The notes beneath the pieces are model-generated. The model was given only the letters and a program-made list of their open reading frames with translations. It made no database searches and was not told where the DNA came from. From Myxococcota bacterium (GTDB lineage: Bacteria; Myxococcota_A; Polyangia; Polyangiales; Polyangiaceae), in contig JBEHXA010000001.1 in assembly GCA_048498935.1 (NCBI GenBank), positions 688 to 64,687 of the forward strand: a DNA stretch of 64,000 nucleotides, given 5' to 3'. Of the stretch, positions 1-53,269 are shown piece after piece. Position 1 is the first letter of the stretch. Each line of letters begins with the position of its first letter. The translations under genes and the position numbers were made by a program.

Positions 1-933
1 GCGCGCTCGAACGATGAAGCGTGCGAAGCTGCGGCCGGCGAGCAGCTGACTCGTGGCGGCAGCGCCATCGATGCGGTGTTGGCTGGCTACTTCGCCGCTG
101 CCGGCGCTTATCCGGGCGTCCTGCTCGGCGCGGTCACGCTGCTGCTCGGTGGCACCGGCTCCGGTGAGCGTGCCTTCGATGGTCGCGTGCGGCAGCCCGG
201 CAAGAACGCAAAGCGTCCGCGTGGCACCGTGGCAGACGCGACGCCGCCCGCTACGGCGCGCGTAGGTGTGCCGTGCTCGATCCCGGCACTGGCCGTCTCG
301 CTCGGTTATGGGGCGCAGGCCACGCTCGGGCGCTTGGTGCAGCCCGGCGTCGCTTCGGCGCGCGAGCGCGGCGCCGAGCGGCGCGCGGCGGTGCTCACCC
401 GCGTTGGCCAGGTGGGCGCCTTGGCGTTTTCGGAGCCGGAGCTGTCGCTCGCGCTGGTGCGCGCGTTCGGGCCGCCCACCGGAGGCCTGGTGACGCCGGC
501 CGACTTTGCGCACCCGCAGAGCCTCGACATCCCGGCAGTTCGGGTGGAGCGTAATGGCGAGACTGCGCTCGAAGCGCCCTGGGCTGAAAGCGCCAGCACC
601 TTGCCAGGGCGTGGCATCGCGGTGAGCGCCATCGACATCAACGGCTTGTTTGCGGCCGTGAGCTTCGACATTTCGCCCGAAGCACTGCCGCTCGACGACC
701 TCGAGCTCTCATGCCCGCTGCTCGCCGCTCCCACGCTGCGCGGCGTGCCCCGCGTGGCGCCCGGCACACCGCTGCCGTCGACCGCTCCGCTCTGGATCAG
801 CTACGACGCGAGCGGCTCTGCCGTCGAGCTCTGGGCTGCCCCGACGTCGCTCGCTCCGCACTCGAGTGAAGGACGACGCCTCGGCATCCGCCGTAACAAC
901 ACCGCCCGCACCGTCGCCGCCCTCGAAGGCTAA
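1..933 (+). CDS. Gamma-glutamyltranspeptidase-like protein, compact and probably catalytically inactive; 5' end lies outside the window
   Basis: Frame +1 is open from base 1. GGT-like motifs GGSAIDAV, FDGRVRQP, VGVP, GGLVTPADF and AVSAIDING are present, but there is no Thr at the beta-subunit start position. Confidence 0.6.
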   Translation, partial: ARSNDEACEAAAGEQLTRGGSAIDAVLAGYFAAAGAYPGVLLGAVTLLLGGTGSGERAFDGRVRQPGKNAKRPRGTVADATPPATARVGVPCSIPALAVSLGYGAQATLGRLVQPGVASARERGAERRAAVLTRVGQVGALAFSEPELSLALVRAFGPPTGGLVTPADFAHPQSLDIPAVRVERNGETALEAPWAESASTLPGRGIAVSAIDINGLFAAVSFDISPEALPLDDLELSCPLLAAPTLRGVPRVAPGTPLPSTAPLWISYDASGSAVELWAAPTSLAPHSSEGRRLGIRRNNTARTVAALEG

Positions 934-1082
934 TTCGGTTTGGGCTTGCCATCCGGGCAGCCGACTAAAGATTCTCCACATCTGGCTCGAGCCGTTGGGC
1001 CAACGACACGGGGCACGGAGCGGCACGAACGATCATCGGCAGCGGTGCCCCGTATTCGGCTCGCGGACGTTGAAGCGTGGAC

Positions 1083-40461: not shown

Positions 40462-41574
40462 TCACGGCCCGCAGTAGGGGCTGACTTCGATCCCGCCCAG
40501 CTGGTCGCCGTCCTCGAAGGGCTCGGCGGCCAGCAAGTAAGTCGTGCCCGCTTCGACCTCGAACTCCGTGCCGCCCTGGTGGCATTCCAAGACGTCACCC
40601 GTGCATGCGTCGAGGATCGCAAAGATCGGATGCGTGCCTTGATCCGAGATCCGCACGTTGAAGTGAACGCATCCAGTCGTAGTCGCCGTCCAGCGATAGA
40701 CGCGGTCCGCGCTCGTTCCTTCGGTGTTGCAGGGCAAAGTGACATCGTCACCGTCGTAGTCGACGTGTGAATCCCACGTCAGATCATCGGTGCCGAGGTC
40801 CTCGTCGTACGCGGGCGCCGAGCAGGCCTGCGCGCCAGCGCAAATCGGGGTTGAATCGTCGACCTCATCGTCGTCCAGCACGCTGTCTCCGGCGGTGCCG
40901 TCGCCCGCGCCGTCGTCGAGCCCCACCTCTACCAAGGTCCCGCCGTGCTCACAGGAGCCGCCGGGGGTTAGCGCCGTGAGCCTGATCAAGGAGCTGTAGC
41001 CATCCTGGCCGTCGTTACCGGGAATGCCTTGCGGTCCTTGACCGCCTTGCGGTCCGACATCGCCGCGCGGTCCAGCGCCACCTTGCGGCCCCGTGTCGCC
41101 CTTTGGACCCATATCGCCCTGCGCCCCGGTATCACCCTTGGAACCCATATCGCCCTGGGCACCCGTATCGCCCTTCGCCCCGGTATCACCCTTGGAACCC
41201 ATATCGCCTTGGGCACCGGTATCGCCCTTCGCCCCGGTATCGCCTTGCGCCCCGGTATCGCCTTGCGGCCCGGCTTCGCCTTGCGGCCCTACTTCGCCTT
41301 GTGGCCCCGCCTCGCCTTGTGCTCCGTCGACACCGTTACACAGCAACAAGGTCTCCTCGACTTCGACGTCGTCCAGCACGCCGTTGGCGTCGTCATCAAC
41401 GCCGAACCTCACCAGGTTGCCGCCTGCATCGCAGCCATCGCCCGGCGCTTCGTCCCGCACCGACACCAACACGCTCGCCGCGCCACTCGTCTCAGGGCTC
41501 GCCGTATCATCATCGGAGCACCCAACGATCGCGAGACCCACGAGCATAACCAACGCCGACCGGCAACCGAGCAT
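40462..41574 (-). CDS. Collagen triple-helix repeat lipoprotein flanked by two DUF7151-like acidic Cys-bounded domains
   Basis: IVGC lipobox; about 38 uninterrupted Gly-X-Y triplets; CDAGG..G.DDD.NG.LDD.EVE..C and CEHGG..G.DDG....LDDDEVD..C. Confidence 0.85.
   Translation of the reverse strand: MLGCRSALVMLVGLAIVGCSDDDTASPETSGAASVLVSVRDEAPGDGCDAGGNLVRFGVDDDANGVLDDVEVEETLLLCNGVDGAQGEAGPQGEVGPQGEAGPQGDTGAQGDTGAKGDTGAQGDMGSKGDTGAKGDTGAQGDMGSKGDTGAQGDMGPKGDTGPQGGAGPRGDVGPQGGQGPQGIPGNDGQDGYSSLIRLTALTPGGSCEHGGTLVEVGLDDGAGDGTAGDSVLDDDEVDDSTPICAGAQACSAPAYDEDLGTDDLTWDSHVDYDGDDVTLPCNTEGTSADRVYRWTATTTGCVHFNVRISDQGTHPIFAILDACTGDVLECHQGGTEFEVEAGTTYLLAAEPFEDGDQLGGIEVSPYCGP
40993..41334 (-). repeat. Coding 9-bp-unit tandem repeat (Gly-X-Y) with near-identical longer duplications
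   Basis: Repeated GCCCCGGTATCACCCTTGGAACCCATATCGCC units. Confidence 0.9.
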
Positions 41575-41885
41575 GGCAACCTCTTCCTTTGGAGTGAAGG
41601 CGCTATCCCAGGCGCCGACACGCCAGTACGGACGCCCCCGTTCAACCATAAGGGTTCCCCCTCGAAACGGCAGGCCGACCCGCCGCGAACCCCCGGCATC
41701 GATCTTGAACGAACGCCGTTCGCAGAGCCGCGCCTCCCGTGTCAGTCAGAGCCGTTCGAGCTCATTGCTTCGCGAAGCGCGCAGGCTCTGAAGAAGGAAA
41801 CGATGGCTCGCAACCTTATCAGTCGTCGGCGATGTCTGATGCTGCGGCGAATCTGCCTCCGCTCAAAGTCAGATTGCAGCATTTC

Positions 41886-42193
41886 AGGGGTCGACCCCCT
41901 CAAAACATGTGCGAAGTCGATCGCGAGGGGTTCGACCCCTGAAATGCGACTCGAATTCCAGTTTGCGATGGGGTCGACCGCTCGTTGGTGACGCTCAATT
42001 CCACAACCGAGCGGTTCGACCCCTCTCTTGGTGAAACCAATTCCAAAAAAAGAGGGGTTCGACCCCTCGAAATCTCTCCGCAAAGCAGCAAAGCAGGGGT
42101 CGACCCCCTCTCGGAGCGATTTTGAAGTCGCAAATCAGCGGTCGGACCCTCGCCGACGGCTCACCAGGTTTGCAAAACAGGGGTGGAACCGGT
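41886..42193. repeat. Non-coding array of eight 14-15-bp palindromes (consensus AGGGGT(T)CGACCCCT), period 40-43 bp, with non-identical spacers
   Basis: Copies start at 41886, 41926, 41969, 42010, 42053, 42095, 42137 and 42179; the last two are degenerate. Confidence 0.9.
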
Positions 42194-42467
42194 CGTAAGT
42201 CAGAAAGCCACGGACGGTCTGGTACTAGTCGCGTCAGCGGCCAGCACACGTGGCGACGGGACCCGTTCCGTCTGGGTGCCATGCCTCCCGCTTGAGCGCC
42301 CATGCCCAGTACGTGAGCGACTATCGGCTGAGCAGATCGATTTTCGAGAAATGACCAAGCGAGGACACGAAGGCTTGAGGGGAGGGACGCCCTCTTCTCC
42401 GGCACTCGTCGTGGGAAACGAGAACGACGACGCTTCTTCATCGATAGATGCGGCCGCCAGACCTTGG

Positions 42468-42713
42468 CTAGAAAGGGGCAAAGCGAGCGCGTGAAATGCG
42501 TCCGTCGCGTACTCCCAACCAAATATTGGCATTGCCCCCGCGGCTGTTGCAGTTGGTGCGTATTCGGACCAGCCAGAATCCTTGGTTAATGGCAATTGGC
42601 TCAACCCAGGGCCAGCCACGCGCATCGCACTCCCTGCGCGCCACCTGCAGTAACGCGGCCTCATCGAGCGAAGAAAGCCCCAAGACCGCTCGTAAAGCGC
42701 CCCAGAGTTTCAT
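42468..42713 (-). CDS. Candidate cognate immunity protein of the Rhs toxin (81 aa)
   Basis: ATGA overlap with the Rhs stop; one helix followed by beta strands (ECDARGWPWVEP...WLVRIRTN...ANIWLGVRDGRISRA). Confidence 0.7.
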   Translation of the reverse strand: MKLWGALRAVLGLSSLDEAALLQVARRECDARGWPWVEPIAINQGFWLVRIRTNCNSRGGNANIWLGVRDGRISRARFAPF

Positions 42714-45700
42714 TGGGTTGCTCCGACGTAGAGTGCGCCGCCTACGAAGCCGACGTACACCGTGCCCTCAATGGTAAAGCGCAGGGGCGTGACATATCCG
42801 TGAGTGAACGGAAAGGCAAGCCCCTGCGAAACGCTGCTCATGCCGTAGCCTTGCGCAATCATCTCTTCAACGCCAGCAAGGAGCGCTGAGTTGTTGTATC
42901 CCCAAGTTAGCAAGCGCGCACGTGCGGCCTGAAGTGGATTGGCTCCTGGCGACAGAAAAGCGTGAACGGACTCGTGGCGGAGGACCTGGTTCACTGTGTA
43001 GGGCGACTGCGCGATCTGCTCCAAGTCTAACGTAATCTGCCCGATCGGCGAGGTGCGGCCCAGCGTGCCCTGCGGCAGACGCGCGAACATGACCGCGCCG
43101 GGCTCTTCGAATGTCGTCAGAAGCGCGCCATACCCAATGCGCTGAACAATTGCGGTTGCCAATGGTTTTGCGACCAGGCCGCCTACGCCTCCGAGGGTTG
43201 CGCCGAAAATGATCGCATCCTCGCGCGTCTCCAAATTTGTGAAGGCGCGACCAACTTCAATGGCGCCTCCATCCCAAAGCAGCTGATACACGACATAACC
43301 AGTGCCAAGTACGGCGACCCCGGCAGCGACTCCGGCACAGCCCGGACCTGCGGCGACGCAGACGGCAGCAAGCTTGGTTAAGCCTGCGCCGGCGCCGACC
43401 GCGACCCCAGCCGAAATGCTGCCGAACAACAGTTTCTCGCCTGTGCTGGCAGCCGGGCCGCGCGGTGCCGCGCTGCTGGTGTACTTGCTCTCGGAATAGC
43501 CAGGCTCGTAAGGACCATACGTTGCCACGCCGGCACCTTCAAAGCCGCCGCCAACAGGTGTAGAACCGCCGAAGAAGCCACCCGAGCCGCAAGCAGAAAG
43601 CTCGTCACACGCCTGAAACCCCGTCGGGTCGGTGAAGCGCAGCGGATTGTTGCCTACGTAGGCTTTGAGGTTGAACGACTCGCTGCGGAGCGGCGAACCA
43701 GTGATCGGATCCGAAGATAGGAACTGTCCAACCTGAGGATCGTAGAAGCGCCCGCCCATGTCTACGAGACCATGTTCGGACTCTTGCCAATGGCCAGTGT
43801 AGCCGAGCCCCTTGATCGAGTTTCCACCAACCGTTGAGGCAGCGCCAAAATAGTCGAACTGGCGGCGCTCCACGACGCCTGCCGACTCGTTGGTGACCAG
43901 CTGCACGCTACCGAGATGGTCATCGTGAAAGTACTGCGTGCGCACCTGTTCTGGAGCACCTCCCGGTGGAACGTCGCGGACCACCTCGGCGACCGCGCGC
44001 TTTCCGTTTCCAATCAGATAGTGGTGTGTGGCGCTGCCATCGGAGGTGCTGGTCTCGCGATAATAGAGTTGGCCCCAATACACGGTGGTTGCATCGGGCG
44101 CCCGCTTAACGGTCTTGGTCGCGGTGGCGTCGTACTCGTAGGTCGTCGGCGCTTGAGGATCACTTCCCCAGACGCGTCGCGGCTTTTCGAAGTCTGTGTA
44201 TTCGATGTTGAGTTCTGGAAGAACTCCGACGCTGCGATGGCTCAGTGTGCCGTTTGGATTGTATTCAAAGCTTGAGGAGTCCTCTCCGTTATCAATCGTA
44301 TGCACGGAATGTGGTGCAGTTGAGTCGTAGTTGTACGTCCAGTTGTTGGCATTTACGTGTAGCGAACCGAACGCCGTGTAATCGAAGTCCGCCGTGATCT
44401 GGCTGCCTTCATGAACCTGATCGATGCGCCCGAAAGCGTCGTATTCGTAAGACTCGGCGTTGCCGTAAGAGTCGGACCTGCTCTCTAGGTTTCCGTCGGT
44501 GAAGAAGGTGTGATGGAGTTCCTGGATGGGGTCTTCGTTGGGTAGCCCGGTAGAGATGCCATCGGGAAGCCCTGTGTAAGGATGATAGGTGCGCGTCGTG
44601 GCGAGGCCGTTTCCGAAAGTCTCTACCGTTGGCTGTCCGAAGTCGTCGACTTGGTCCAGTTTCCAAAAGCTAGTCTGCGCTGGGGTCTCGCTGTCGGGAC
44701 CTGACCTGACCTGTTTGAGAATACCGCTGGATTCGTCGTAGACGTTCTCAATCTGGAAGGTGTCGCCTGGGTAGGTGACATAGCGCGGGCGTCCGTGTTC
44801 GTCCCTCTCATCGATCGAGACAACGTGGTCCTCACCGTCGAGCGTTTTGGTGAGCGATTTGACGCGGCCGAAGTCGTCATAGTCCACCGTCGTTGCGATG
44901 CCGTCGGTTGCGTTGAAGTCAAGGCGTTGAGGAAAGTCTTCACGCCAGACCCACGTATCCGAACGATTAGGTTCGTTGGGGGCGCGCGGGTCGACGATGC
45001 GAAAGTGCCTGCGACCAAGACGATCGTAGGTAAAGGTGACGGTCGCGTCAGCGTCGACCGTGCGCTGGAGCTCGCCGAACGGCGTGTAGAAATACGTCAT
45101 CGGATCCGAACCGATATTAGTTCGTGACGCCTGTCGCCCCAGGCGGTCCGATCGCATTTCGCTGACAATGGTCCCTTCGGGCATCCGGATGGCTTGCTCG
45201 AAGCGCGAGAACGGACCGTACTTGTACGCAATTCCCGCCCGTTGCGCAGTCTGGGTCGCCGCAAACTCCTCGGCGAAGCTGACACAGTCTTGTTCACCCA
45301 TCTTGATGGGGTCGCCAGCGAAGAGGATTCGTCCGTGGTAGTCCTTTTCGACGCACCGAGCGCTGTTGTCGGCACCGACGGTGCAGCTCGTTAACCCGAC
45401 GTAGCAGTGGGTGCTCTGCCCGCCGCCCGGTTCGGAGACGAAAGTCAGTCTGTTTTGATTGTCGTAGTCGTATTCTGTGTTGTTATCGACGTTGAACGAT
45501 TTCAGCCAACGCGACCTGGTGGCAACCGACCCTGTCGTGTCGTAGGTGGTGTAGGTCGCGTACGGTATTCCGCCGAAACCAGTGGCGGATTCTGACAGCT
45601 CTCGTCCTAGCTCGTCGTACCGGTGCTTGACGGTGGGGCCGCCGTCGAGCTCTGACACGACATCGAGGCCATTGCCTCCGGTCGAAGGATACGACGTGCG

Positions 45701-48700
45701 TGTCGTGTTGTTATCCGGTGCGATAGTGACGCGGGGCCGACCAAATCCATCATGGACCGCCTGCGTAGTGAGCGTTTTAGAGCCGGTCTTGCCGTGCTCG
45801 ATCGCCTTGGTGATGACGCCAAGACCATGACGGTATTCAGTTTCCTTGCTGTAGCCTTCGGCGTCTGTGATGAGGGCTGGGAAAACTTGCCTGGCCTCAT
45901 CGTAGACCACGGTGGTCGTGCGCTTCTTGTCCTCATCACAACTTGTGCTCCCTCCGCACGTCTCGATCAGCGTGACGTTTCCGTACTCATCGCGTCCCAG
46001 CCGCGTCGACAGCGTATAGGTGGCAGTGTCTGGCTCGATTGTCGTGCGTTCGAGGAGCCCGTTGTCGTAGTACTCGAAAGCGGTTGTTCGCGAAAAGCCA
46101 GCCTGGTGGGACTCACCCGCGATGCCGGACGATGTAACTACTCTTCGCTCGGGTAAGCGGACGAGCCACGCTTCGACGAACTCGGGCCGACTCTCGTATG
46201 CGAAGATTACGTTGAGTTTCTCCTGCTCGTTGCGGCCTCCTCCACTCCAATCAGAGACGACGGACTTCTGGTTGCCGTAGTCGTCGATCTCGATCGTGTG
46301 ATCGACGCGGCCAAGCAGTGTGGATATGCCATCGCGCGTTTCGAATTTGGTCTCTGTTACGATATGCTCGTAAGGCAGCAGCACCCGCGGTGAGTCTGCG
46401 CTTGGCTTGACAGCCCACTGCGCGAATCGCCGCGTGAGGATGCTTCCTTGTTCAGTGGCGGAAAGATCGATGCGCGAGTACTCGCGCCCGGCAAACGGGA
46501 ATGCGCCCGTGTTGGCATCGCGTGTCACGTTGTCGAGATGTGAAACAATCGTGGTGCCGCGATCTAGCTCGGACGCCGCGTGGAAGGAGAATCCGAGGTT
46601 TCCGCGGCCGTTGAGGCCGATCTTTTCTCCGCTGTAGCTGTGCGTGAATTCTCGAATGAATCCAGTGAGATAGCTGGGGCCTTGAAACTCCCGATGACGG
46701 GCCACCAGAGAATGCCGAGGTGTCCTGCAGCGCAAACCGTTGGTGTAGGTGCAGTTTGCGTCAACCGAATTGCTGTAGACGTTCTCGGTAAAGAAGGAGG
46801 CGAGGGGATCGCTGGCAGCCGGTGGATGGTCCGGCACGGATGCGTTCGCGTAGTCGACCTCTATTCGCCCATCCAGGCCATTGGTGACGGCGGTGAGCTT
46901 TGCCACCTGAGGACCTCGACGGATATAGGCGGCCAAGTTGGCCGGTGCAAAACCGCCTGCAGGTTTTTGGACGAAGTCCTTGACGCCGTCGCCGTTGACG
47001 TCCATCGCCAATCCGCGTCCAGCCAAGACCATGCCTACGAAGGTGGTGGGCGGTGCATTGCCGGCAGGGAAATCCCGAACGCGCCAGCCAGAGAAAGTTC
47101 CCCCCAAGGCAGCGTCGGGATTTTCGACTCGTGACTGGAGCCAGCGCCAATTCGCTTCACCAGGACCGGCGATCATGACGTCATCGCGCCCATCGCCATC
47201 GATGTCCACGACTGGTCCGAGAATGTACTGATAGCCTCCCGCGGTTAGGAGGCGCCTGGGCTTGCCATCGACGACAGGCTGGCCGTCAAAAAGGTTGCTC
47301 TCTTCTCGGCAATCAAACGGGTCTTCGGCATCACCCGTACCGAGGCATGTTGAGAGATGGCCGGCATTGTCGTGCGTGACAATATCTGTGAAGCCATCGC
47401 CATTGGCGTCGAGTGGGGTCCCTGACTCGCCGCGCGCTACTGAGACAGGAACGTGAGTCTGGACGACATCGGTGCCGACAGGTCCTTCTTCTCCGTATTC
47501 CGCGTCATCGAAGGTGATGGACAGATAGTCTTCAATGTCCTGAAACTGCTGATTATGATGGTGATACGCATAATTCTGAATCAATAGCGCCTGTTTTCCG
47601 CTTCCGTCGACGTCGGCGGCTATGTAGTGCATGAAGCAAAAGCCGTTGAAATCGATCGGGCGTTCTGTCAGGTCGGGCAAGTGGACGAGCGTCCACGTCC
47701 AGGGCCCCTCATGGACATAGTAACCTCCTTCGTGCCCACCGGTGCATTTGATGATGTCTTTAACGCCATCGCCATCGGCGTCCAGGATGTAGCTGCGGTG
47801 AATGGGGATCTCGAGGCCGATTGGAGAGGTCGGCGAGGGGACGCCGAGATCGAGAACCTTCAGCTTCGAGTCCTTGTAGGTGAGGACCTGATAGTTGCCC
47901 GCCGTGGTAGCCCCTTCCATGAGGAGGTCGTCGAGCCCGTCATTGTCGTAGTCGACGACGTTGTAGATCTCAGGGGCGTTGTAAACCTTGGGTATGAAGA
48001 AATCGGCGGGAGTCTCGGGTACTACTCGATCTCGGCCCGACATCAGCACCTCGAGGTGCTTGCGCCAGCCGTTTACATTCCCATCCGAAGGCCGTCCGTC
48101 CAGAACGACCATCAAGAGGTCGTCGACTCCGTCTCCGTTCAAATCCGCGGGCATGTCGGGGACTACATCGAATTGCGCACTTTCGGGGTCATTGGGGTGA
48201 AACCCGATGGGCACTCCTTGTGACAATGCGGGGACTTCGTTTTGGTACGAGAAGGATGTGGCTGGCTTGCAGACCATGTCGCTGAAGTTGGTCAATCCTT
48301 CCAGCGCCGGCACACATTCGCTGATTTGAGTCAACCAGCTTGGTCCAGAGTACGCGATCTCGTGGTCCATTCTGTATTCGCGAACGATCGTCGAACCAAC
48401 GGACGTGCGAATCCGTTTTAGAATGCGATCATTTCTAAATAAGACACCGCTGCGGTACCCATCGGTGATGTCGTTGCGTCGCTCGTATTCGAACTCGATC
48501 CGGCTGTCGGGCTCAGTTCCGTCAGTATGCCCTGCGTACCAAATGTTTTTGGGCTGGATGAGCGCGCTCTCCTTCGTGGCAAAGCTCTTTCCGCGAACCT
48601 CGTACTCGATCGTCATGTAGTTGCCGGCGCGGTCCTCGACACGTGTGGCGACCCACAGATCGTTGTGAAAGTTGCTGATGCCGGGTTCTATGAAAGTGAC

Positions 48701-51700
48701 CACGCGGCCGTCGGGATAGAAGGCCCGGTACCCCTTCGACAACCTTTGGTCGATGGTAACGACTTTGGTTCCATCGTTGATTTCGGTCTGGTACTCCGAT
48801 TCAGGTGCGTCGATATCGCTGATGCGAATTAGCCTCGCGCCATCGAGGCAGAGCCTGTCCGACTGCGCAGGACCAACGGCTTTCCCGTCTTGGGAAATCG
48901 TTGCCGGGCAGCTGGTGATCCGCGGGAGACCCGTCAAGGACCAGCCCTGGCCGAGGTCTCCGTTGCCGTTCGCGCTATTGTAGTAGAGACTCAGTCGAGG
49001 TTGCATCTCGCCACGACCTGGCGGCACCAGGAGCGGAATGGTGTACGTCGCCTGTCCGTTGTGAGTGACGGCGAATGTGCCGTCGATTGTTCCGGAGCGT
49101 TGTGTGGCGTAGTCGGAGGAAGGGATGCCCGGAGGGGGAGATGACGCGAGTTGGAAATTTCCGATACAGCGTTGCTCGGGGCCTTCGAATTCGTCCGGAA
49201 GGCAGGTTCCGCAGCTCCCATGGCAGCCGTCGTCGCCGTAGTCCTTCCCGGCGCAGTCGGGTTCACAGGCTTCGCAGAGTCCGCAGGCAGACGTCGTCGT
49301 GCCGCAAGGCACGTCCTGGGGGGCGAGCGCGTCGCAGATACGCTGCCGGCAAGCACGGTTCACACCGGTAAGGCCGAAGAGCGGACCGGCGCCCTCGCGG
49401 CAAACAAGTCCGGGGGCGCACTCGCCGTCCTTGTGGCACTCGCCTTCGCGCTCGTTGCAAAGCACGCAGGTGCCGCCGCACCCGTCATCCGAATTGTCTC
49501 CGCAGACTTTCCCGGCGCAGCTAGGCTCACAGTTCGGGAGGGGGTTCTGAGCAAAGCAGAGACCGCAGGGGCTGTCGATTGAGCCGCACCAGGTTCCGAT
49601 AGACCCCAGATCACATCCACCTGCCCAGCAGTATCGGCCGGGCGGCTTGCCAAAAGCCCACCCGCTATCGCTTGGACACACTAGCCCCGCTCGACATGAG
49701 CCATCGGTGCAGGGGTCGCCGACCTCGTCGTCTCCTGCACACACGCCAGCCTGACAAGTTTGGGTAGGAGAACACACATTGGCATTCGCACAGGTCTGCC
49801 CCTCCGACCGACACTTCCCGTCCGCCGCGCAGTACTCTCCTGGCGCGCAATCGGCGAACGTGCTGCAGGTTGAATTGGGGGGCGCCAACTCCTTGGGTAT
49901 CAACAACCCCTCTGGCCCCTGATACAAATAAGGCGGTACGTTGAGCAGCACGCGTTCGCCGACGGTGCCGGCGGCGCCGTCGTTGAAGTACCAGAGCTCG
50001 TCGGTGGGGGCGCCGGAGGGGATGGGGATGATGAAGTGATCCCAGAGGCCGGAGAGGCCGCCGTTGGCGATGTCGTGGGGATTGGTGCAGGCGTGGCCGA
50101 CGGCGTAGTCGGAGAGGTAGCGGGCGGGCTCGGTGACCCAGGCGGTGCCGGCCGCGTTCTTCTTGTTGCGGAAGAAGGTGCCGTCGGATTGGGACCAGCC
50201 GACGACTCGCGTGGTGCCGGCTGGCACGAAGAAGTAGGCCTGCCAGCGGTAGTTGAGGGCGAGCGGTTGGTCTTTGCGTCCTACCGGAATGGCTAGAGCC
50301 GTTCCATCCGGCACGTTGGCGTACATGCGACTGCCGGAATCGTCCAGGTCGAGGCGGTAGACCGCGTTCGGTAGAGCGTTGTCGAAGACCCAATCGGTCT
50401 CGGTTTCGGGTACGGCGTCCGACAAGAAGCGATACTCGAGGCCGACGTTCGGTGTGCTCGGCAGCGAGAGCCGCCCGGCGAGGATTTCTCCCGGAGCGTA
50501 TTTGATGACGTGCGCGGTCAGCGGGCCCGCGGAGCTCGGGCGTTGGAAGAAGAAGTAGTGCGGTTGCCGGGTGTAGATGCTTTGGAGTCGCTTCGGCAGT
50601 GTGGGCGTGAGCTGGTACGGCACCAAGTCCCGCGAGAAGTCCTTGATGAGCGTTGGATCGACGCCCGTGTCGAGGATGGGTACGTTGGCGGCGCCAGCCG
50701 TGACGTAGCCGTAGATCTCCTCGGGTGAGGGGCTGGTGCCGGTCTTCATGGGGTTGCAGCCGGCAGGCGGCGTGGCGCCTGAGCACGTGCCGCACGTGGC
50801 CGTCGCGGTCGCGGACGGGCACGTGGGGTTCCAGACCGGCATGTCGCAAGCGGGGCCGCTAGTGGGCTCGACGGTGCCCGTGCAGTTCGGCACGCCTTGG
50901 ACAATTTCTGTGATGGCGTCGTACGACTCGAGGATGCGGCGGTCGCGCGTTGCGTAGGTGAACCGCAGGAGGTCCCTGAGTTGGCTCTGCTCGCTATTGG
51001 GGCTTTGCGCGTCGCAGCGATTCCAGAACTTGCGGCTGAGCTCGAGGTAGCGCGTGTAGACGGCGAGATCGTCGAGGCGCAAGCGGATGCGCTGGTTGAC
51101 GGTAGTGTTCTCCGTCGTGGCCTCGTAGGCCTTCTTGAGGGCGCGGTACATCACGCCGACCATGTTGTCGCTCCACAGCGCTCGGTCTTCGGTCACCTCA
51201 TAAAACTTGTTCATGTCGCCCGCGGCCGACCCGAACGCTTTGGTCAGGAAGTCGCTGCGATAGGTGGCTGCGTTGACTGCGCTGGGAGTATCCAGATCCC
51301 AGAGCGCGTTCGATAGAGCCCACCAGGCCGGTCCGGACGCGCCGAACCCCCAGTTCACGTTGAGCTCGTAGCGACGCACGCCGAGGTCGTAGAAGGTTCG
51401 AATGCGATCAACGATGGACTGCGTCGAGATTTGAGCTTGGCCCGGGAACTCGTTGGCACTGCCAGAGATGGCATCCGTGATGCCCGCCTCGAAGCCTGCG
51501 CTGCCCCAGCCGCGCACCCGGTTCTCGAGCGCGAACGGGATCGGCGCCACGTACGTGGTGTGGACGTTGACGATGGCGTTCTGCCTGAGCGCGATCGTCG
51601 GTGCATCCGCAGAGTCGTAGAGGAAGTCCGCAACGACGACTTTCGTCGGTTGCGCTTCAGCGGCAGCGTTCAGGATGGCCGCAACTCGGTTGGAGATGTT

Positions 51701-53269
51701 GCGGAACGTCGGGTCGTTGACGTCGTTGCAGTTCAGGCCAGTTCCGCTGCTGTCGGGCACCGAAACCCAAGTGACGTTGGCCGTCGGCGAAAGCGAGAGC
51801 CTGGTCGCGGCGTTCTGCTCACTTGCCCACCTGTTGACTATCTTTTGGACCGTCCAGTCCTCACCGGCCGCGTTGGCAACGCCAGTCAGGCAGAGTTGTC
51901 GATTTCCGGGGCTGGTACCGGGGTTGGTGGAGAGCGCCGGCGGGAACGTGACGCCATACTTGTTCTGCCACCACGTCACGACCTGGGCGTAGCTGCCGCC
52001 CAGAGCCAGAGCCGTGGATGTGTACAGGCGGTTGTGCTTGCGCCAGGCGTCGAAGTAGCTGTTGCTGACGGTGGTGAAGCCGGCTTCCCAGGAGTCGCCT
52101 GGGAAATTCAGGGTGCGCGACGGGACGGCGGGCTTCTCGTCGACGGCCAGCGAGAGCGGCTGCTGAAGGGTCGCAGGCTCCGGAAACACTTCCCAAGTAG
52201 GGCTCGGAAAGTAGTGGCGATACCCGATGCGGGCGAGCAGATCCGAGACCGCGTCTTGCAGGGCGTCGACGGTGGCGCCGGCCACGATGACACGGTTCGA
52301 GTTTTGAGGCGTGTGGAGTACGTATTGTTCCGCCAGCTGGAGGCGTTGAGGGCGAAGCACGCCACCTGCCAACGTATCGTTCGGGCGGAAATAACCTTGG
52401 TATGGCCAGCCGGTGTTCGGAAAGTCACCGTCGATGCCGAGCGAAATGCCTGAAGGCGTATTGGTCGCAGCGGCCACGCTGAACTGTGTGCCAGTCAGGC
52501 CCTTGATCTTGTTGAGCTTGTCGCGCAGGTCGTTCGCGATCGCGACGATCTTGTTCTGTAGGTTCTGGTCGGTATGGGGAGCGATGACGATCGACAGAAC
52601 CGCATCGTTAGAGGAGACGAGCGTGACCGGGCCCGGAGTGGGGGGTGTGCACGGCGCACACGAGCCGCCGCAATCGACGGCCGTCTCGTTCCCATCCTTC
52701 ACGCCGTTCTGGCAGGTGGAAGCCCAGCAGACATCGGTGCCGGCGGGGAGGTGGAACGCGGGGCCGTTGCCGTTGCCGCAAACGAGACCGGGCTGGCATT
52801 CCTGGACGCTGTCGCAGTCGCCTTCGCCGGCGCTGCAGGGGCAGTCCGTGCTGCAGTGCGAGGTGCTGCCGTTCGAGGTGTCGCAGGTAACGGTGCAGTC
52901 TGAGCCGCAGGGACCGCCGCAGTCGATTGAGGATTCGCCCCCGTTCTTGCTTCCGTCGCTACAAGTGCTCGGAGCGCAGGCGCCTCCGCTGAAAGGGCCG
53001 CGCTTGGCGAGGTTGCCTGCAACGCAGGTGTAACCTGAAGCGCACTGAGAAGAGTCGGTGCAGGGGCCTTCACCGAGCCCGCAGAGGTGCGAGTTACTCG
53101 CGCCGCAGTAATCGGGGTCTCCGACGGCCGCACCGGGCGTCCCCTTCATCGCGCTTTGATGAATCGCCCCGAGCTCCTCGCCGCCACCACCGTCGACCTG
53201 CGAAGAGTCGCTGCACGCGAGCAAAATGACACTCGCCCAAGCCGCCCAAGTCCATGCGCCCCAGTTCAT
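42710..53269 (-). CDS. Giant Rhs/YD-repeat polymorphic toxin: lipoprotein signal, Cys-rich repeats, DUF4838-like module, SpvB, FG-GAP repeats, YD shell, Rhs core, C-terminal HExxH zincin
   Basis: ILLAC19; GQATYTIPLLVPPGRGEMQPRLSLYYNS..GNG.LGQGWSL; DLNGDG/DVNGDG repeats; YD repeats; GYTGH...MGGRFYDP..GQFLSSDP...N..AYVGNNP.RFTDPTG; LRHESVH...EEMIA. Confidence 0.92.
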   Translation of the reverse strand: MNWGAWTWAAWASVILLACSDSSQVDGGGGEELGAIHQSAMKGTPGAAVGDPDYCGASNSHLCGLGEGPCTDSSQCASGYTCVAGNLAKRGPFSGGACAPSTCSDGSKNGGESSIDCGGPCGSDCTVTCDTSNGSTSHCSTDCPCSAGEGDCDSVQECQPGLVCGNGNGPAFHLPAGTDVCWASTCQNGVKDGNETAVDCGGSCAPCTPPTPGPVTLVSSNDAVLSIVIAPHTDQNLQNKIVAIANDLRDKLNKIKGLTGTQFSVAAATNTPSGISLGIDGDFPNTGWPYQGYFRPNDTLAGGVLRPQRLQLAEQYVLHTPQNSNRVIVAGATVDALQDAVSDLLARIGYRHYFPSPTWEVFPEPATLQQPLSLAVDEKPAVPSRTLNFPGDSWEAGFTTVSNSYFDAWRKHNRLYTSTALALGGSYAQVVTWWQNKYGVTFPPALSTNPGTSPGNRQLCLTGVANAAGEDWTVQKIVNRWASEQNAATRLSLSPTANVTWVSVPDSSGTGLNCNDVNDPTFRNISNRVAAILNAAAEAQPTKVVVADFLYDSADAPTIALRQNAIVNVHTTYVAPIPFALENRVRGWGSAGFEAGITDAISGSANEFPGQAQISTQSIVDRIRTFYDLGVRRYELNVNWGFGASGPAWWALSNALWDLDTPSAVNAATYRSDFLTKAFGSAAGDMNKFYEVTEDRALWSDNMVGVMYRALKKAYEATTENTTVNQRIRLRLDDLAVYTRYLELSRKFWNRCDAQSPNSEQSQLRDLLRFTYATRDRRILESYDAITEIVQGVPNCTGTVEPTSGPACDMPVWNPTCPSATATATCGTCSGATPPAGCNPMKTGTSPSPEEIYGYVTAGAANVPILDTGVDPTLIKDFSRDLVPYQLTPTLPKRLQSIYTRQPHYFFFQRPSSAGPLTAHVIKYAPGEILAGRLSLPSTPNVGLEYRFLSDAVPETETDWVFDNALPNAVYRLDLDDSGSRMYANVPDGTALAIPVGRKDQPLALNYRWQAYFFVPAGTTRVVGWSQSDGTFFRNKKNAAGTAWVTEPARYLSDYAVGHACTNPHDIANGGLSGLWDHFIIPIPSGAPTDELWYFNDGAAGTVGERVLLNVPPYLYQGPEGLLIPKELAPPNSTCSTFADCAPGEYCAADGKCRSEGQTCANANVCSPTQTCQAGVCAGDDEVGDPCTDGSCRAGLVCPSDSGWAFGKPPGRYCWAGGCDLGSIGTWCGSIDSPCGLCFAQNPLPNCEPSCAGKVCGDNSDDGCGGTCVLCNEREGECHKDGECAPGLVCREGAGPLFGLTGVNRACRQRICDALAPQDVPCGTTTSACGLCEACEPDCAGKDYGDDGCHGSCGTCLPDEFEGPEQRCIGNFQLASSPPPGIPSSDYATQRSGTIDGTFAVTHNGQATYTIPLLVPPGRGEMQPRLSLYYNSANGNGDLGQGWSLTGLPRITSCPATISQDGKAVGPAQSDRLCLDGARLIRISDIDAPESEYQTEINDGTKVVTIDQRLSKGYRAFYPDGRVVTFIEPGISNFHNDLWVATRVEDRAGNYMTIEYEVRGKSFATKESALIQPKNIWYAGHTDGTEPDSRIEFEYERRNDITDGYRSGVLFRNDRILKRIRTSVGSTIVREYRMDHEIAYSGPSWLTQISECVPALEGLTNFSDMVCKPATSFSYQNEVPALSQGVPIGFHPNDPESAQFDVVPDMPADLNGDGVDDLLMVVLDGRPSDGNVNGWRKHLEVLMSGRDRVVPETPADFFIPKVYNAPEIYNVVDYDNDGLDDLLMEGATTAGNYQVLTYKDSKLKVLDLGVPSPTSPIGLEIPIHRSYILDADGDGVKDIIKCTGGHEGGYYVHEGPWTWTLVHLPDLTERPIDFNGFCFMHYIAADVDGSGKQALLIQNYAYHHHNQQFQDIEDYLSITFDDAEYGEEGPVGTDVVQTHVPVSVARGESGTPLDANGDGFTDIVTHDNAGHLSTCLGTGDAEDPFDCREESNLFDGQPVVDGKPRRLLTAGGYQYILGPVVDIDGDGRDDVMIAGPGEANWRWLQSRVENPDAALGGTFSGWRVRDFPAGNAPPTTFVGMVLAGRGLAMDVNGDGVKDFVQKPAGGFAPANLAAYIRRGPQVAKLTAVTNGLDGRIEVDYANASVPDHPPAASDPLASFFTENVYSNSVDANCTYTNGLRCRTPRHSLVARHREFQGPSYLTGFIREFTHSYSGEKIGLNGRGNLGFSFHAASELDRGTTIVSHLDNVTRDANTGAFPFAGREYSRIDLSATEQGSILTRRFAQWAVKPSADSPRVLLPYEHIVTETKFETRDGISTLLGRVDHTIEIDDYGNQKSVVSDWSGGGRNEQEKLNVIFAYESRPEFVEAWLVRLPERRVVTSSGIAGESHQAGFSRTTAFEYYDNGLLERTTIEPDTATYTLSTRLGRDEYGNVTLIETCGGSTSCDEDKKRTTTVVYDEARQVFPALITDAEGYSKETEYRHGLGVITKAIEHGKTGSKTLTTQAVHDGFGRPRVTIAPDNNTTRTSYPSTGGNGLDVVSELDGGPTVKHRYDELGRELSESATGFGGIPYATYTTYDTTGSVATRSRWLKSFNVDNNTEYDYDNQNRLTFVSEPGGGQSTHCYVGLTSCTVGADNSARCVEKDYHGRILFAGDPIKMGEQDCVSFAEEFAATQTAQRAGIAYKYGPFSRFEQAIRMPEGTIVSEMRSDRLGRQASRTNIGSDPMTYFYTPFGELQRTVDADATVTFTYDRLGRRHFRIVDPRAPNEPNRSDTWVWREDFPQRLDFNATDGIATTVDYDDFGRVKSLTKTLDGEDHVVSIDERDEHGRPRYVTYPGDTFQIENVYDESSGILKQVRSGPDSETPAQTSFWKLDQVDDFGQPTVETFGNGLATTRTYHPYTGLPDGISTGLPNEDPIQELHHTFFTDGNLESRSDSYGNAESYEYDAFGRIDQVHEGSQITADFDYTAFGSLHVNANNWTYNYDSTAPHSVHTIDNGEDSSSFEYNPNGTLSHRSVGVLPELNIEYTDFEKPRRVWGSDPQAPTTYEYDATATKTVKRAPDATTVYWGQLYYRETSTSDGSATHHYLIGNGKRAVAEVVRDVPPGGAPEQVRTQYFHDDHLGSVQLVTNESAGVVERRQFDYFGAASTVGGNSIKGLGYTGHWQESEHGLVDMGGRFYDPQVGQFLSSDPITGSPLRSESFNLKAYVGNNPLRFTDPTGFQACDELSACGSGGFFGGSTPVGGGFEGAGVATYGPYEPGYSESKYTSSAAPRGPAASTGEKLLFGSISAGVAVGAGAGLTKLAAVCVAAGPGCAGVAAGVAVLGTGYVVYQLLWDGGAIEVGRAFTNLETREDAIIFGATLGGVGGLVAKPLATAIVQRIGYGALLTTFEEPGAVMFARLPQGTLGRTSPIGQITLDLEQIAQSPYTVNQVLRHESVHAFLSPGANPLQAARARLLTWGYNNSALLAGVEEMIAQGYGMSSVSQGLAFPFTHGYVTPLRFTIEGTVYVGFVGGALYVGATQ

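Follow-up and report, generated by a model that had tools for sequence, protein, structure and literature searches.

Rhs toxins with tips resembling zinc proteases are already a known class, and in the founding survey most of them lack an assigned immunity family and target. Zhang et al. 2012 (PMC3482391) described the zincin tips Tox-MPTase1-5, Tox-HopH1 and ALF-MPTase in RHS and TcdB/TcaC proteins, characterized the Tox-MPTases as small domains distantly related to minimal zincins (Wss1-like), and listed no immunity family for Tox-MPTase1-5 in their table. Here we analyze a stretch of 64,000 nucleotides (referred to below as the window) from a Myxococcota bacterium of the family Polyangiaceae (GCA_048498935.1, contig JBEHXA010000001.1, positions 688 to 64,687), in which a giant Rhs protein (P0001) ends in a small domain with an HExxH motif and is followed by a gene for an 81-aa protein (P0002). 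We consider it probable that the end of this Polyangiaceae-type Rhs protein is a polymorphic toxin-immunity cassette, comprising a zincin-like tip and an antidote with the PepSY fold. The toxin-immunity pair is real and conserved, and the computational evidence supports an earlier reading of this DNA, made from the letters alone; catalysis, inhibition and target are predicted. The pair of families is new, within a kind of bacterial warfare system that is well known.

Like the Tox-MPTases of Zhang et al., the new toxin is a small HExxH domain that occupies the very C-terminus, preceded by RHS repeats or carriers of the TcdB/TcaC type. Unlike them, its family remains below the Pfam cut-offs of Tox-MPTase2-5 and has a defined partner family. 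Tox-MPTase1 was compared by its stated range only (delta-proteobacteria, planctomycetes, TcdB/TcaC, RHS; PMC3482391), which is compatible with the present family. The features of the locus are given below with the evidence for each; A1 is an alignment of 122 sequences of the toxin domain, A3 is the alignment of the P0002 family described further on, AF2 stands for AlphaFold2 and ORF for open reading frame.

42710..53269, minus strand: gene for P0001 (3519 aa), a giant polymorphic toxin of the Rhs/TcB-TcC type (ORF list, translation, Pfam, NCBIfam)
43619..43852, minus strand: Rhs-associated core (residues 3140-3217), closed by the autoproteolysis motif DPTG (TIGR03696 and sequence)
43070..43615, minus strand: conserved pre-toxin module, residues 3219-3400 (HMMER, alignment, hydropathy)
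42713..43087, minus strand: C-terminal toxin domain, residues 3395-3519, of an unnamed family with a zincin-like predicted fold (HMMER, A1, AF2)
42962..42976, minus strand: HESVH (HExxH), residues 3432-3436, in the predicted helix 32-45 of the domain (sequence, A1, AF2)
42854..42868, minus strand: EEMIA, residues 3468-3472, in the predicted helix 68-83, with the family consensus EExxAE (sequence, A1, AF2)
42468..42713, minus strand: gene for P0002 (81 aa), an immunity candidate with a predicted PepSY fold (ORF, A3, AF2, fold matches, conserved position)

The toxin domain and its relatives

An exhaustive HMMER search with the 305-aa tip of P0001 against 1.84 billion representatives (50% clustering, E<=1e-3) returned matches that split in two sets, one aligned to tip residues 1-190 and the other to tip residues ~180-305; 315 homologues were found at this threshold, and it is the larger set that matches residues ~180-305. 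The earlier note had treated a tip of about 300 aa as a single toxin. Its size was estimated correctly (301 residues follow DPTGF), but it is composed of two parts, a pre-toxin module of ~180 aa and a toxin domain of ~125 aa. In nearly all homologues the toxin domain sits at the C-terminus, and elsewhere it is carried by proteins with Rhs and DUF6531, by proteins with TcdB_midN and FG-GAP, by proteins with eCIS_core (DUF4157), and by a PT-HINT cassette array (GCA_000255655.1). The range of carriers together with the C-terminal placement indicates that it behaves as a polymorphic-toxin C-terminal domain. The family has been found in Myxococcota, Planctomycetota, Verrucomicrobiota and metagenomes, and within the phylum of the source organism it is rare (2 of 401 genomes). 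The array in GCA_000255655.1 (L013; JH636434.1, 1048320-1056919) is chromosomal and consists of short toxin cassettes bearing PT-HINT; the toxin domain forms the end of one of its proteins (P0015, 199 aa), and a divergent gene of the PepSY type comes next.

The HESVH motif is located precisely where the earlier note had placed it (42976-42962), and EEMIA is present downstream (42868-42854), as also claimed there. In A1 the residues H38, E39, H42, E75 and A78 are invariant, at least 90% conservation is seen at G10, T12, G16, V41, R56, Y64, S67, E74, E79, G89, Y98 and E107, and a degenerate motif occurs in only 3 of the 150 best homologues. Because H38, E39 and H42 (and with them E75 and A78) do not vary across the 122 sequences of a family with 315 homologues, the HExxH is no chance motif. 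In thermolysin the third zinc ligand is the Glu of the N-E-x-x-S-D helix, of which the E-E-x-x-A-E helix is a counterpart by sequence pattern; E3469, in the predicted helix 68-83, is a candidate for the third zinc ligand.

The sequence matches of the toxin family to described domains are weak, and those that recur are mostly to zincin families, namely M78, DUF6782, Tox-MPTase2 and SprT. The best E-values over the 122 members of A1, all of them below threshold, were 2.8e-4 for M78, 0.034 for DUF6782 and 0.032 for Tox-MPTase2, the last being matched by 5 of the 122 members (best E 0.03). Membership in Tox-MPTase2-5, M78, DUF6782 and the SprT-like family was rejected, as the Pfam scores remain below the gathering cut-offs. 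Sequence searches of the PDB with the tip, P0002 and the A1 profile returned only noise, and the feature search of the ESM Atlas with the tip gave M48 and Tox-MPTase4, as leads only.

The AF2 model of A1 (pLDDT 97.1) comprises a two-stranded hairpin, the HExxH helix, the EExxAE helix and, at the end, a long helix rich in Gly. Searched against 48,161 chains with VIA, it retrieved PprI, YbeY, lugdulysin, deuterolysin, selecase, abylysin, Spartan and lethal factor amid unrelated folds; among the AFDB clusters it matched one member of its own family (TM 0.65) and, weakly, YgjP, M48, M56 and DUF4157, and in the ESM Atlas it matched Peptidase_MA_2 models at TM 0.47-0.53. With the minimal zincins, i.e. 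minigluzincins and M48/M56 cores (abylysin, selecase), IrrE/M78, SprT/Spartan and YgjP/DUF45, the domain has in common a length of ~100-125 aa, a short β-hairpin ahead of the HExxH helix and, further on, a helix with a conserved Glu-x-x-Ala. It differs from them in that the structural similarity is weak (VIA Z 2.8-3.5), only two strands are predicted, an extra helix lies between the active-site and the Glu helices, and the C-terminal helix is long and rich in Gly. The claim that the tip is a zincin is thus supported computationally, by the invariant HExxH and by weak sequence and fold neighbors that are minimal zincins (M78/IrrE, SprT, YgjP, M48/M56, Peptidase_MA_2, DUF4157), and we read the toxin domain as a divergent minimal gluzincin outside every named family that could be compared by model.

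The small partner protein and its pairing with the toxin

The start of the P0002 gene overlaps the stop codon of the Rhs gene (ATGA at 42710-42713), which confirms the coupling of the two genes reported in the earlier note. A word-based homologue search with P0002 alone retrieved no relatives, only the query itself. The ORFs that stand right after the toxin homologues P0008, P0014 and P0010 are homologous to it, and so are two tandem ORFs that follow the toxin in G075, a genome from the GTDB family of the source organism. A profile search starting from such neighbors of toxin homologues produced the alignment A3 of 16 members, one of which is annotated from a metagenome-assembled genome (MAG) of Polyangiaceae. 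Pfam matches to PepSY (PF03413, cut-off 24 bits) were obtained for 6 of the 16; the match of P0164 (24.6 bits, model positions 2-56 of 60) is the only one past the cut-off, and P0165 and P0158 score 22.7 and 19.3 bits. P0002 itself has only a weak match to Imm-NTF2-2 (PF15631; E 0.16, 12.6 bits), and membership in this family was rejected, as the cut-off is 26 bits and even the best member of the P0002 family (in locus L028) reaches 17.7.

The AF2 model built on A3 (pLDDT 85.9) has a helix (residues 18-32) and four strands, as expected from the earlier description of a PepSY- or cystatin-like helix with three or four strands. The best Foldseek matches of this model in the PDB are the PepSY domain of FoxB (TM 0.65, rmsd 2.0), YpmB and CD1622; VIA puts YpeB first (Z 7.8), with designed cystatin folds, CD1622 (7.2), YpmB (6.9), DUF2874 and FoxB (6.0) also in the list. 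PepSY predominates among the matching AFDB clusters, next to some immunity proteins of the NTF2 type, and the feature search of the ESM Atlas with P0002 gave Imm-NTF2-2 and PepSY as leads only. Judged by the modeled fold, the P0002 family therefore belongs to PepSY, and at the level of sequence its membership is marginal. The likeness to the PepSY domains of M4 propeptides, YpeB, YpmB and the periplasmic part of FoxB extends beyond the helix and the four-stranded sheet to the association with a zincin bearing HExxH and Glu, and to the end of the sequence, which resembles the '..D..tG.v' ending. The difference is that P0002 is standalone and leaderless, presumably cytoplasmic, and would act in trans on the toxin. 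To our knowledge, the known PepSY domains are extracytoplasmic.

The core of the A3 family begins with Met-Thr and has no leader, and the copies adjacent to toxins have N-terminal extensions of 12-25 residues with Arg and Lys inside the hydrophobic run, so the absence of a signal peptide noticed earlier is borne out. Judging from these charged, leaderless N-termini, export of P0002-type proteins is unlikely, and the toxin should therefore act on the cytoplasmic side. A similar amphipathic N-terminal peptide (h-h-R-x-h-L/F-G/C) opens both of the unrelated classes of partners described below (P0002 and the partners in L005, L013, L015, L027 and L029-L034); it is missing from the orphan immunity copies and from those in G075. 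It could be an element contacting the toxin, or else a leftover from recombination inside the immunity gene's 5' end.

Six-frame ORFs of the loci were scanned with the A1 and A3 profiles and the junctions were read directly. Directly 3' of the toxin, a gene of the A3 type is present in 8 of the 15 loci found through the toxin (the locus in the window, L004, L005, L007, L008, L013, L027 and L028), an unrelated gene of ~150 aa in 6 (L029-L034, from Planctomycetota and Verrucomicrobiota) and an ORF with a CxxC zinc ribbon in one (L006). Another three loci with the toxin were reached via the immunity gene, two of which (L017 and L020) have 3-4 tandem copies of it, and immunity copies without a nearby toxin occur in L009-L012 and L016. 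Most toxin/partner junctions exhibit the ATGA overlap. The alternative partner family comprises proteins of ~150-165 aa without a Pfam match, with the conserved motifs GIVLEE.G.P.G.VT and RDGV.Y..WG. In a maximum-likelihood tree of 18 toxin domains, the toxins whose partner is the 150-aa protein group in one clade (support 100/99) and the PepSY-type partners fill the rest, including the sister of that clade; as the sequences are related and not independent, this pattern shows clustering only. The partner gene is thus immediately downstream and co-directional, and the pairing is kept in unrelated genomes; the downstream overlap, tandem arrays, orphans and partner swap are standard signatures of immunity genes. 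In L004 (G075:C88) the toxin domain is found in a shell-less protein of 383 aa, followed by two tandem PepSY-type genes and then by a 193-aa ORF (389-970, minus strand) made of two internal repeats (MTxxEA...YGWIFYY...), which may be another gene of the immunity type.

The carrier protein, the pre-toxin module and delivery

P0001 exhibits the hallmarks of the Rhs/YD-repeat proteins of the TcB-TcC type, i.e. shell domains, a core with DPxG and a variable C-terminal toxin. It consists of an N-terminal lipobox-like leader, Cys-rich regions, SpvB (38.5 bits, cut-off 22), FG-GAP repeats (FG-GAP_3, 31 bits, cut-off 26.9), YD repeats and the Rhs core; RHS_repeat gives a single Pfam match of 19.6 bits, slightly below the cut-off of 22. 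The core is matched by the NCBIfam model TIGR03696 with 63.1 bits (cut-off 32.5) over model positions 3-75 of 76, and is closed by RFTDPTGF. The DPTG cleavage motif reported earlier is present, but it is located at 43630-43619, two bases away from the position given before (about 43632-43621). With the cocoon toxins of the Rhs/TcB-TcC type the protein shares SpvB, FG-GAP, YD repeats, a core ending in DPxG and a tip that is swapped among orthologues; it differs in its lipobox-like N-terminus, in ~1300 aa of Cys-rich N-terminal sequence without assignment, and in a conserved hydrophobic pre-toxin module, matched by no Pfam model, between the core and the toxin. The N-terminal region (residues 1-~1320, window positions 49300-53269) holds the lipobox-like leader and the Cys-rich cassettes, and ~1000 aa of it have no Pfam match.

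A full-length orthologue of 3538 aa (P0004, from a 27-kb contig of the JGI metagenome 3300078620) is 55% identical to P0001 over 3472 aa and has a different tip. It shares the P0001 tip up to about tip residue 190 and diverges only past the pre-toxin module, and directly 3' of it, where P0001 has the P0002-type gene, there is a 177-aa gene with DUF7919. P0004 represents a second toxin/immunity allele of the P0001-type carrier.

The pre-toxin module contains paired Cys residues, a linker rich in Gly, hydrophobic Gly/Ala-rich helices (two or three in number), and the motifs GTGY and DGG. The Gly/Ala-rich hydrophobic segment pointed out in the earlier note was found by Kyte-Doolittle hydropathy at residues 3280-3332 (43432-43274, minus strand), and it sits in this separate module, outside the toxin domain; across the whole of P0001, a 19-residue mean of at least 1.5 is reached only there and at residues 3352-3371, also within the module. 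The module is common, at 35-57% identity, to P0003, P0004, P0005, P0007, P0034 and P0141, which match only tip residues 1-190 and have no HExxH; past the module their C-terminal regions are mostly unlike one another, with P0003 and P0004 sharing one type. In the alignment of the module 26 columns do not vary; two pairs of Cys, a GEK motif, the hydrophobic helices rich in Gly, and the GTGY and DGG motifs are among them. By these sequence comparisons, residues 3219-3400 are a portable pre-toxin module, since its relatives share it and yet carry other toxins, and P0004 diverges only after it. It is rare: of 61 genomes from the GTDB family, it was found in the source genome only. A Pfam scan of the module matched no model; PT-TG was suggested as its identity by the feature search of the ESM Atlas and was rejected, as Pfam did not confirm it, and the term PT-TG does not appear in the accessible portion of Zhang et al. 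2012 (PMC3482391).

The source MAG (868 contigs, 93% complete) has four Rhs cores. No gene for TssC, the sheath protein of type VI secretion systems (T6SS), was found in it, and because of this, delivery of P0001 is probably not by T6SS. P0001 and P0004 both begin with the lipobox-like leader, and our guess for the delivery form would be a surface-anchored BC-type cocoon.

In the window, just 3' of the immunity gene (41881-42193), short palindromes rich in GC (GGGGTCGAACCCCTC-type units) form an array with a spacing of ~42 bp; the one at 42068-42052 (minus strand) precedes a T run and has a terminator-like score. The next downstream gene (40462-41649, minus strand) encodes 395 aa with DUF7151, collagen triple-helix repeats and a galactose-binding-like domain associated with the type IX secretion system (T9SS). 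The ORFs 42200-42664 and 41995-42522, which overlap P0002 in other frames, were treated as spurious; the latter has no Pfam support.

Proposed mechanism, alternatives and significance

In the proposed mechanism, the Rhs shell would enclose the tip and cut it off at DPTGF. Once delivered, the Gly/Ala-rich module might insert in the target membrane and help the toxin to reach the cytoplasmic side, which is a guess. The toxin would be a minimal gluzincin-type zinc metallopeptidase, with the two His of HExxH and E3469 as ligands, and would cleave an essential protein in the cytoplasm or at the inner-membrane face. The PepSY-fold protein would bind the toxin 1:1 and block the active-site cleft, as is assumed for PepSY-containing propeptides acting on M4 peptidases, and would in this way protect the producer together with its kin.

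Several results weigh against the interpretation as a zincin with a PepSY-fold antidote. On the toxin domain every Pfam and NCBIfam model stays short of its cut-off; the P0001 tip has no Pfam match at E<=1, and NCBIfam returned none. The toxin model has no convincing match to a solved zincin, as the best Foldseek hit in the PDB is collagenase H at E 3.4 and the best VIA score is Z 4.0. On the side of the partner, P0002 itself gives no PepSY match, and an hhalign comparison with just four bona fide PepSY domains gave a probability of 10% and an E-value of 0.003. Moreover, nearly half of the loci found through the toxin use another partner, and therefore PepSY is not obligatory.

These results leave room for a toxin that has a zincin-like scaffold but is no peptidase, with the small protein still acting as its immunity protein. 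It could be a metal-dependent nuclease or RNase resembling YbeY, which together with AQ_1354 scores level with true peptidases in the structure search (Z 3.0-3.6), or it could damage membranes by its Gly-rich helices, as the pre-toxin module and the toxin domain's final helix are both Gly/Ala-rich and hydrophobic; the failure to reach the cut-off of any peptidase family fits either variant. We find this improbable, however, because the invariant HExxH with the Glu-bearing helix is a gluzincin signature, unlike the HxxxHxxxxxH of YbeY, the weak sequence matches of the family are mostly to peptidases, and the C-terminal helix is just moderately hydrophobic (median best 17-residue Kyte-Doolittle value 1.1). 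A different role for the partner, as a folding chaperone or adaptor of the tip and not an immunity protein, would bring P0002 close to the PepSY propeptides of M4 or to the Eag chaperones that shield effector helices. The PepSY fold of its model, the amphipathic extension of the toxin-adjacent copies and the hydrophobic helices of the tip, which might need shielding, are consistent with such a role, but the stop/start overlap directly downstream, the arrays of 2-4 paralogues, the toxin-less orphans and the replacement in one toxin clade are typical traits of immunity genes, and the partner tracks the toxin domain and not the hydrophobic module, which in P0004 is the same and is accompanied by DUF7919. 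We consider a chaperone very unlikely.

The target raises a separate question, since a cassette aimed mainly at eukaryotic prey or hosts, in the manner of Tc toxins, would require the small protein only for protection of the producer before export. The architecture of SpvB, FG-GAP and Rhs is indeed TcB/TcC-like, the same toxin domain has been found behind eCIS_core, and the failure to find a T6SS sheath gene in the MAG points in the same direction. A TcA-type binding domain was not matched, but this search was uninformative, as the control genomes were equally silent. What argues against eukaryotic targets, and makes us hold them for unlikely, are the expanded immunity arrays and the orphan immunity genes, which point to pressure from incoming toxins between bacteria.

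Starting from the toxin-immunity cassette, a more specific proposal can be made, which we regard as possible but rather doubtful: that standalone proteins with the PepSY fold and no leader serve in the cytoplasm as dedicated inhibitors, acting in trans, of an unclassified family of minimal gluzincin toxins, that the amphipathic peptide shared by both partner classes (h-h-R-x-h-L/F-G) plugs the substrate cleft, and that the Gly/Ala-rich module is a new portable device for membrane translocation. If true, this would be the first genetically defined pair of a zincin and its PepSY inhibitor outside propeptides. A literature search found no paper that ties PepSY to the immunity against polymorphic toxins, which does not prove that none exists.

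The analysis defines a sizeable unnamed family of toxins, with 315 representatives at 50% clustering, genetically linked to a partner of the PepSY fold. The portable hydrophobic module that separates the Rhs core from the toxin might explain how the cargo of Rhs proteins gets across the membrane of the target. A role of PepSY in regulating peptidases has been proposed, with evidence coming mainly from propeptides, and the two-gene pair offers a simple, selectable system for asking whether, and in what way, PepSY inhibits a zincin.

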